From the NCBI RefSeq assembly GCF_988243305.1, contig NZ_OZ547136.1: DNA of 64,000 nt; one strand, written 5' to 3'. Under the pieces are notes generated by a model. It searched no databases. It was not told where the DNA came from and worked only from the letters and a program-made list of their open reading frames with translations. Position 1 is the first letter of the stretch. Every line of letters begins with the position of its first letter. Both the position numbers and the translations under genes were made by a program. Below, in pieces: positions 54,551-55,698 of this stretch.

Positions 54551-55288
54551 TCATTCACTCTCTTTCAAACCAGTTTTAACTGTTTGTGGTTTTGGGTAAG
54601 GCTGGACTTTGAATAGCTTTGTGTTAAGGCGTTTTCTGGCTCTCTTGTCCAGAAACCGGATGTAACGAAACTGACGGAATTTATGAACACTGGCTCTGTC
54701 GATATTAGCCCGCAGATGTTCACCTCGCTGTCCTCCTCGTTTGATTGCATTCTTGCAAATCTCGTGATACCACTCGCCATCAAGTTCATAGAATGTTGTT
54801 TCATGACTGCCTACATAATCAAAATTGCTTGCCTGGTACACGACACCAAGACAGCCACAACGCTCATCTGCAAACGACTGAACCCACTGCACCTGCGGAT
54901 AAAGTTGTCTGATTAGTTTGAGCGCGTAACTGATTGCCCTTGATTCGGAGTTTCTCGGCATACAGTCATGCAGCCATAACCGGTTAAGCTCCATATATTC
55001 GCGGTTCTGCGTGCCAGTTACGACGCGTGCACCATTGTTTGGATTAAGGGCATAACCCCATTGCATTACGCCAACCAGCTCCCGTTCTGAAAATATGCCC
55101 AGATGAAGGTAGGAATTATTTACGAAACGATGGCTGTAATGTTTATTGACGACGACCAGCCGGGCCAGCCAGCAACTTATTGTCTCAACCCGTAACTCAC
55201 GGGAGCCATAACCGACGATATTGTCGTTATAGTGAATAAGTTCAGGCGTGCTGATGATACGGGATGTAACTTGCTTTCTGTTCCCCAC
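54551..55288 (-). CDS. mom: Mom-like DNA modification protein
   Basis: Follows and overlaps a Com-like gene in another frame; start proposed at GTG 55288 with AAGGAA SD; long ORF extends to 55483. Confidence 0.5.
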
Positions 55289-55442
55289 GACAGGATTTCC
55301 TTGTGTATGTGGGGTGCTCTGTGGCGCTCTGAGATGTGATTTGATTGAGGGTTTTACAGCGCGGACATTTAACTTCCAGATAACTGAAGCTGGCTCGTGC
55401 CAGTAGCTTGTTACAATGTCGGCACCGTATGTTTCGATACAT
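55242..55442 (-). CDS. com: Com-like zinc-finger translational activator
   Basis: [14 protein letters not shown]...EVKCPRCK zinc-ribbon resembling Mu Com as I recall it; AGGAGG SD upstream. Confidence 0.6.
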
Positions 55443-55487
55443 GGCCGCATAACCTCCTGCTTTGTTGTTGATATCTTTATCACTCAA

Positions 55488-55508
55488 TCGATCGACAAAA
55501 ACGATCGA
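55488..55508 (-). promoter_or_regulatory. Paired GATC sites upstream of com-mom
   Basis: GATC at 55490-55493 and 55503-55506, about 50-65 bp upstream of the com start. Confidence 0.35.
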
Positions 55509-55698
55509 TTTGATTTATTTAATTGATACAACAAATAACACGAAATGTCATTAGCGAAAATTTATGAGTTTGATCACTAATTTTAAACGGTGCTGTAACG
55601 CATAAGTGCTGAATGATTGTACATTTGAATACCGCAAAGCAAACAAATCAACTAATTTATAGAAGTCAATTGGTTAATTGCCAGCGTAAGAGGCTGCT

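Follow-up and report, generated by a model that had tools for sequence, protein, structure and literature searches.

Does the minus strand of this E. coli DNA carry a com–mom module controlled in the way known from phage Mu, and where does its Mom protein begin? The locus lies in the window, by which we mean the whole stretch of 64,000 nucleotides that was analysed. An earlier note had described a Com-like gene overlapping a Mom-like gene, paired GATC sites upstream and an undecided Mom start. We found the com–mom module to be of an ordinary, known kind, situated at the right end of a Mu-like E. coli prophage, and identical DNA has been annotated already. With a probability of roughly 80%, it is a com–mom operon of a Mu-like transposable prophage that works like the one of Mu. 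Beyond correct annotation the significance of this assignment is little.

According to this reading, a single mRNA would be transcribed from the region of about 110 bp upstream of com, and Com would be translated via AGGAGG-N10-ATG. In free mRNA, the GUG at 55288 and its Shine-Dalgarno sequence AAGGA would be buried in a stem-loop (55314–55283). By analogy with Mu, Com may bind a small hairpin (55327–55314) and open the stem-loop, whereupon Mom would be made only with Com present. Using charged tRNA(Gly), Mom would add a glycine-derived carbamoylmethyl group to the N6 of adenine in DNA, and this modification would protect the DNA from restriction. Dam methylation of GATC-N9-GATC (55490–55506) probably gates transcription, the unmethylated pair forming one half of a putative OxyR repressor site. 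In the lineage of the window the pair would adjoin or overlie the core promoter, unlike in Mu, where it is located upstream of the activator box.

The com and mom genes and their RNA elements

The gene com (55242–55442, minus strand, ATG at 55442 to stop at 55242) encodes a putative CCCC zinc-ribbon translational activator of 66 aa. The protein matched Zn_ribbon_Com of Pfam (PF10122, E 8.8e-13) as well as 'gpCom control of modification'/'translational regulator' of PHROG (E 3e-13, about 1e-13). It exhibits 45% identity to Com of Mu and has kept the motifs IRCxxCNKLL and CPRCK. The cysteines of the N-terminal CxxC…CxxC zinc ribbon (C7, C10, C26, C29) align with C6, C9, C26 and C29 of the Mu protein. 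An AGGAGG is present 10 nt before the ATG at 55442 (55453–55458, minus strand). Because of this gap of 9 to 10 nt, which recurs as AGGAGG-N9/10-ATG in the relatives L048 and L050, we regard the AGGAGG as the ribosome-binding site of com. Judged by its sequence, com is under purifying selection.

The gene mom (54551–55288, minus strand) starts with the GTG at 55288 and encodes a Mom family tRNA(Gly)-dependent adenine-modifying enzyme of 245 aa, as assigned by Pfam, PDB and RefSeq. Mom covered the whole model of Pfam PF25680 (positions 1–202 of 202, E 9.2e-78) and matched both the PHROG family 'Mom-like DNA modification protein' (E 6e-83) and the sequence of the Mu Mom structure in the PDB (8bv8, E 2.4e-123). 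In a pairwise alignment it was 75% identical to Mu Mom. The residues required for the activity of Mu Mom are W48, H58, Y59, R111, S124, D149, R151 and Y159 (PMC13219725), and all of them are identical in the Mom protein of the window. NCBIfam returned no match for any of the six proteins searched.

The com–mom genes of Mu (NC_000929, Mup54/Mup55) belong to the same two families. The 3' end of com and the 5' end of mom share 47 nt in the window (55242–55288, minus strand) versus 50 nt in Mu, out of frame in both cases. The overlap of a Com-like zinc-ribbon gene with a Mom-like gene in another frame, as claimed in the earlier note, was therefore borne out by Pfam and PHROG for both partners. At the DNA level, only the coding part of mom could be aligned between Mu and the window (72%).

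RefSeq annotates on identical DNA a 245-aa Mom protein from the GTG equivalent to 55288, together with a 'Com family' protein. The names given to Mom vary between 'protein mom', 'hypothetical protein', 'adenine methylcarbamoylation protein' and 'tRNA(Gly)-dependent adenine aminoacyltransferase'. Com is called 'Com family DNA-binding transcriptional regulator', a misleading name for a protein that, by homology with Mu, would be an RNA-binding translational activator.

The start of mom is embedded in a translation-inhibition stem-loop (TIS, 55283–55314, minus strand), in which CCCCAC (55314–55309) pairs with GUGGGG (55288–55283). The stem contains the GUG start, and an inner AGG/CCU helix is predicted to mask the Shine-Dalgarno sequence AAGGA (55298–55302, minus strand), located in the loop 9 nt upstream of the GTG. 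The minimum free energy fold reached -13.3 kcal/mol (z -2.15). RNAalifold predicted this 6-bp stem for 10 of 10 diverged relatives too, the outer pair covarying between C-G and U-A. The arrangement in Mu is alike, with the GUG start in a CCCAC/GUGGG stem adjoining a Com hairpin with a CC-N3-GAG loop. The TIS loop differs, comprising 20 nt with an inner helix in the window compared to 11 nt in Mu, and the Shine-Dalgarno sequence of Mu mom is a GGAG at the place equivalent to AAGGA.

The candidate Com-target hairpin GCGC[CACAGA]GCAC (55314–55327, minus strand) is located directly 5' of the TIS and exhibits the loop motif CC-N3-GAG (CC-ACA-GAG). In Mu, the Com target is CC(N)2-3GAG in a hairpin loop adjoining the TIS (PMC6483171). 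In 15 homologous sites, chosen by eye at the homologous position and hence carrying some selection bias into the covariation count, 95% of the stem cells were paired and changes on both sides occurred at 4 of 4 pairs. This level of covariation was matched by none of 500 shuffles, and RNAalifold applied to longer natural segments agreed with it. The sole unpaired cells were a C·A at the second pair of the 4-bp stem in the window, L048 and L049. This mismatch is absent from Mu, and L028, a near-identical relative from IMG/VR, has a U-A in its place. Owing to the C·A mismatch, only two of the four hairpin pairs were formed in the minimum free energy fold of the window.

The GATC pair and the promoter region

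The two GATC sites (55490–55493 and 55503–55506) are 13 bp apart and precede the com ATG by 48–64 bp, in agreement with the distance of about 50–65 bp reported before. Both are carried by a perfect inverted repeat, AATCGATCG-N7-CGATCGATT (55486–55510). Within the window, the 9.6 kb of prophage contain 20 GATC, of which only these two are 20 bp or less apart, a mildly unusual situation. Each of the 13 enterobacterial-type com–mom loci in the comparison has GATC-N9-GATC ahead of com, with diverged flanks, and the com–methyltransferase locus L006 exhibits the same spacing. On comparison of these sequences, chance does not explain the recurrent spacing. None of the marine gammaproteobacterial relatives carries GATC-N9-GATC upstream of com.

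Read in the plus direction, the GATC palindrome and the TGATTTATTT after it (55486–55520) were marked as terminator-like. The palindrome itself probably accounts for this, but such an element could stop antisense transcripts leaving mom and com.

In Mu, GATC sites 2 and 3 have the form AATCGATC-N9-GATCGATT. The same pair of Dam sites is present in the window, its spacing and flanks being identical, and the sequence comparison confirms that the pair corresponds to Mu sites 2 and 3. Site 1 of Mu is absent from the window, which has GTATC at that place. A third GATC (55572–55575) lies 69 bp off, in sequence not common to the sister lineage. Furthermore, the distance from the pair to the com ATG is 51 nt in the window compared to 78 nt in Mu. 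The proposal that the region mirrors the control region of Mu hence holds for the GATC pair, but not for site 1 and the C box, both absent, nor for the position of the pair, 27 bp nearer to com.

Two architectures can be distinguished among the relatives. In the 'long' one, represented by Mu, D108-like phages, L052, L053 and Pantoea, a distance of about 78–91 nt separates the pair from the com ATG, and a third GATC is present 18–19 bp upstream of the pair. The 'short' one comprises the window, the O157-type prophages, L036, L048–L050 and Edwardsiella, with about 51–70 nt between the pair and com; L006 has the short arrangement as well. Among the closest known systems are prophages of the Mu kind in STEC (Sp18 of O157:H7 Sakai type; L003, L004); from 55551 downward, their regulatory region and com are 93–95% identical to those of the window. 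These prophages and the window do not differ in the GATC pair, the hairpin, the TIS and the GTG, and they share the flanking cargo genes. They differ in the -10-like segment (GAGAAAGGC vs. GATAAAGAT) and in the divergent ORF upstream.

The presumed core promoter (55460–55485, minus strand) was placed by position and contains a weak -10-like GATAAA/TAAAGA and no -35 element. A scan of the com strand with the sigma-70 consensus detected no promoter. The lack of a constitutive sigma-70 promoter is as expected if the promoter is activator-dependent. Relatives of the short class carry TATACT, TATAGT or TAGATT 7–9 nt after the second GATC, while the E. coli lineage has weak ones only, and the -10 region is poorly conserved even between close relatives. 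In O157-type relatives, the divergent upstream gene leaves only about 110 bp for a promoter.

The C box of Mu (TTAT-N6-ATAA, TTATgccccaATAA), which overlaps the -35 element there, was not found between the GATCs and the -10 in the window, where about 26 bp are missing compared to Mu, and it is missing in loci with the short architecture generally. The L007 prophage encodes an activator of the Mor/C family with 40% identity to Mu C. Since this homolog is just 40% identical to Mu C, a different C box is possible. Transcription of com–mom may depend on a C-like activator of the prophage.

A shared late-promoter or activator motif, TCCGCAAA, was considered and dropped, as its genome-wide count was 51 found vs. 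49 expected and it is absent upstream of com. In a related prophage, TCCGCAAA is present upstream of the lysozyme and SASA-esterase genes and CCCGCAAA upstream of the protease gene. The sequence ATTTCCGCAAA precedes the esterase gene at about 58895–58902 and also the lysozyme gene of the related prophage, without statistical support.

In Mu, OxyR binds a region upstream of the C site that includes GATC sites 2 and 3. By analogy, com–mom of the window may be sensitive to Dam and OxyR. We noted a candidate OxyR tetramer site, ATCAATTAAATAAAT-N7-ATCGTTTTTGTCGAT (55491–55527, minus strand), from its consensus score. The best match to the OxyR consensus ATAGnTnnnAnCTAT-N7-ATAGnTnnnAnCTAT upstream of com is 13/20, a value reached by 18% of shuffles. 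The region upstream of Mu mom likewise gave 13/20 as its best match, in the same register as in the window. The OxyR footprint, the -10/-35 elements and the C site of Mu were placed partly after PMC4461284 and PMC3378877.

Alternatively, the GATC palindrome might not be an OxyR site but the operator of another factor, such as a C-like late activator or SeqA, or Dam might directly affect binding of RNA polymerase or of the activator. In favour of this, the 9-bp inverted repeat is perfect and more symmetric than the OxyR consensus demands, it is located roughly where the C site of Mu sits relative to com, its OxyR score is not significant and the C homolog has diverged from Mu C. However, the same arms (AATCGATC…GATCGATT) flank GATC sites 2 and 3 of Mu, no such palindrome is present at other likely late promoters of the related prophage, and the GATCs are spaced by 13 bp, the size of one OxyR half-site, as they are in gtr (PMC2909390). 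On balance, we consider a role other than that of an OxyR site quite unlikely, and a Dam- and OxyR-sensitive control region resembling that of Mu remains our preferred reading.

Known Dam/OxyR switches provide a further comparison. In P22 gtr the GATC pair is spaced by 13 bp inside one OxyR dimer half-site, the same holds for the pairs of E. coli agn43, and the promoter-proximal pair is located at about -46/-33, comparable to the position presumed in the window (PMC2909390). The gtr switch comprises three half-sites and four GATCs. Both gtr and agn43 are heritable phase-variation switches of surface-structure genes, unlike mom, for which no phase variation is known.

The short architecture is common to O157-type prophages, several other enterobacterial Mu-like phages and com–methyltransferase cassettes. 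In these loci, the Dam-sensitive GATC pair might lie over the core promoter (about -25 to -45) instead of upstream of an activator box, which we regard as unlikely. If it were true, com–mom would be gated by direct methylation-sensitive occlusion, like gtr and agn43. A Mu-type C site would then perhaps not be needed, or expression of com–mom from the prophage might be bistable. The shortened promoter arrangement, the only difference from Mu that is not trivial, offers a modest lead for work on Dam/OxyR control of mom.

Prophage context and related modules

The Mu-like transposable prophage extends from about 54421 rightwards in the window and is inserted in the host gene dcyD. Its right end (54421–54550) reaches about 130 bp beyond the stop of mom; identity with 14 other genomes begins at about 54421. 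This end was found at 100% identity and at different insertion sites in the 14 complete E. coli genomes. In Mu, too, no gene follows com and mom towards the right end of the phage, which lies 115 bp after mom. Towards the prophage end, the gene order is baseplate, tail fibres (invertible), Gin invertase, cargo, com and mom.

In the com region, another 218 E. coli genomes, O157:H7 and O111 among them, are 90–95% identical to the window, and that Mu-like prophages of the Sp18 type encode Mom and its regulator has already been described (PMC3299994). The RNA elements and the GATC pair were invariant over hundreds of genomes.

One might suspect that com–mom is an inert remnant of a defective prophage which has lost its expression. 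The near-identical prophage of NZ_AP045820 indeed contains IS66-family insertions and a frameshifted transposase, and the -10 region drifts between relatives. On the other side, the reading frames of com and mom are intact, the catalytic residues have been kept, selection on com is purifying, and the RNA elements and the GATC pair show the invariance just mentioned. We therefore judge an inert remnant very improbable compared with a working operon of the Mu kind.

The prophage of L007 (NZ_AP045820), the end of which is identical to that of the window, carries two IS66-family insertions in addition to the frameshifted transposase, because of which it is defective there (features at 12148–14564, 36679–39014, 41506–43592 and 23948–24027 of L007). 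RefSeq marks a 'tRNA-OTHER' between its head genes.

The gene dcyD, encoding the D-cysteine desulfhydrase of the host, is truncated by the prophage insertion (54136–54420). The 140-aa ORF listed in this region is a chimera of dcyD and the prophage end. The remaining half of dcyD must be located outside the window, past the opposite prophage end.

Between gin and com the window, but not Mu, contains about 3.3 kb of cargo (56160–58831, minus strand). It encodes a 684-aa protein with a sialate O-acetylesterase (SASA) domain and DUF6645, followed by DUF1378 and DUF826. The PHROG families of the cargo are without assigned function; presumably they are similar to cargo found in lambdoid and Stx phages. 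Divergent from com is a small ORF of 86–97 aa without family match (55699–55992, plus strand). O157-type relatives have a different divergent ORF instead, and the two lineages become homologous only at about 55551. In a search of the region against Rfam, nothing was found beyond a far sub-threshold match outside com–mom. This match to the EHEC sRNA Esr41 (56689–56771, plus strand; 22 bits vs. a gathering score of 102, E 0.32) is situated between the DUF1378 gene and the esterase gene.

Modules led by com but encoding a DNA methyltransferase are present in Pseudomonas phage B3, FluMu (hin1523), Pnm1 (nma1821), L005 and L006. They have the same cassette of GATC cluster, com, hairpin and TIS with GUG, but the methyltransferase replaces Mom. 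In L005 (NZ_CP116067, 2610–3816) the cassette is joined to a DNA cytosine methyltransferase and the swap point is located directly after the GUG. In L006 (NZ_CP043821, 2488–3436) it is joined to a DNA methyltransferase and preceded by three GATCs with the spacing of Mu, 18 and 13 bp. Judging from these arrangements, com and its RNA switch look like a portable control unit that has been put to use for various toxic DNA-modification genes.

Many homologs of Mom (66–79% identical; L009, L014–L018, L067–L102) have no recognisable com upstream. They originate from Serratia, Yersinia, other genomes and IMG/VR contigs and are often located mid-contig, not at a phage end. Mom thus seems not always to be under the control of Com.

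The start codon of mom

The open mom frame spans 55483 to 54551 (310 codons, minus strand) and includes 65 codons upstream of the GTG (55289–55483). Within this extension, an ATG in the mom frame (55448–55450, minus strand) follows 2 nt after AGGAGG. The open frame and the ATG behind AGGAGG, both described in the earlier note, are present as stated, on the minus strand. Together they could specify a long Mom of about 299 aa, made from the ATG at 55450 independently of Com. However, a spacing of just 2 nt between AGGAGG and ATG is too short for initiation, and this AGGAGG, as outlined above, serves com.

Comparison with relatives also speaks against translation of the extension. The mom frame upstream of the GTG is open for 65 codons in the window, but for 27 in the O157 type, 46 in L048 and L049, 19 in L010 (Edwardsiella) and 10 in Mu. 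In most relatives compared the length ranges from 10 to 68 codons, L036 having 122, and the sequence is not conserved. The ATG at 55450 is not a conserved start and is absent from L048–L050, L010 and Mu. In the O157-type sister lineage (the 218 genomes with 90–95% identity) a TAA, absent from the window, closes the extension 26 codons after the position of ATG 55450. This TAA resulted from a GTT-to-GTA change, synonymous in the com frame. Among substitutions versus close relatives upstream of the GTG, the numbers of synonymous to nonsynonymous ones were 6:1, 9:0 and 5:2 in the com frame. The same substitutions within the extension gave 1:6, 0:9 and 1:6 in the mom frame. From the variable length, the TAA of the sister lineage, substitutions synonymous only in com and the use of AGGAGG by com, we conclude that the extension is non-coding in the mom frame and a chance product of the com frame overlapping it. 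In addition, the Mom models of both Pfam and PHROG start downstream of the GTG. A long Mom starting at ATG 55450 was rejected as almost certainly wrong, based on the extension lengths in the relatives and the substitution pattern.

Instead, the GTG at 55288 can be traced to the start in Mu. It aligns with V11 of the 241-aa annotation of Mu Mom. The actual start of Mu mom is a GUG within the TIS stem (PMC6483171), and Mu Mom without its first 10 residues is still active (PMC13219725). By sequence comparison, the Mom start is hence resolved as GTG 55288, the counterpart of the GUG start of Mu. The Mom start and the length of the overlap, left undecided in the earlier note, are in this way settled at GTG 55288 and 47 nt. 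For a widespread family of E. coli prophages, the start of Mom can be set at the GTG in the conserved stem-loop. The crystallised chain of Mu Mom (8bv8, 232 aa) has its N-terminus at the position matching GTG 55288.
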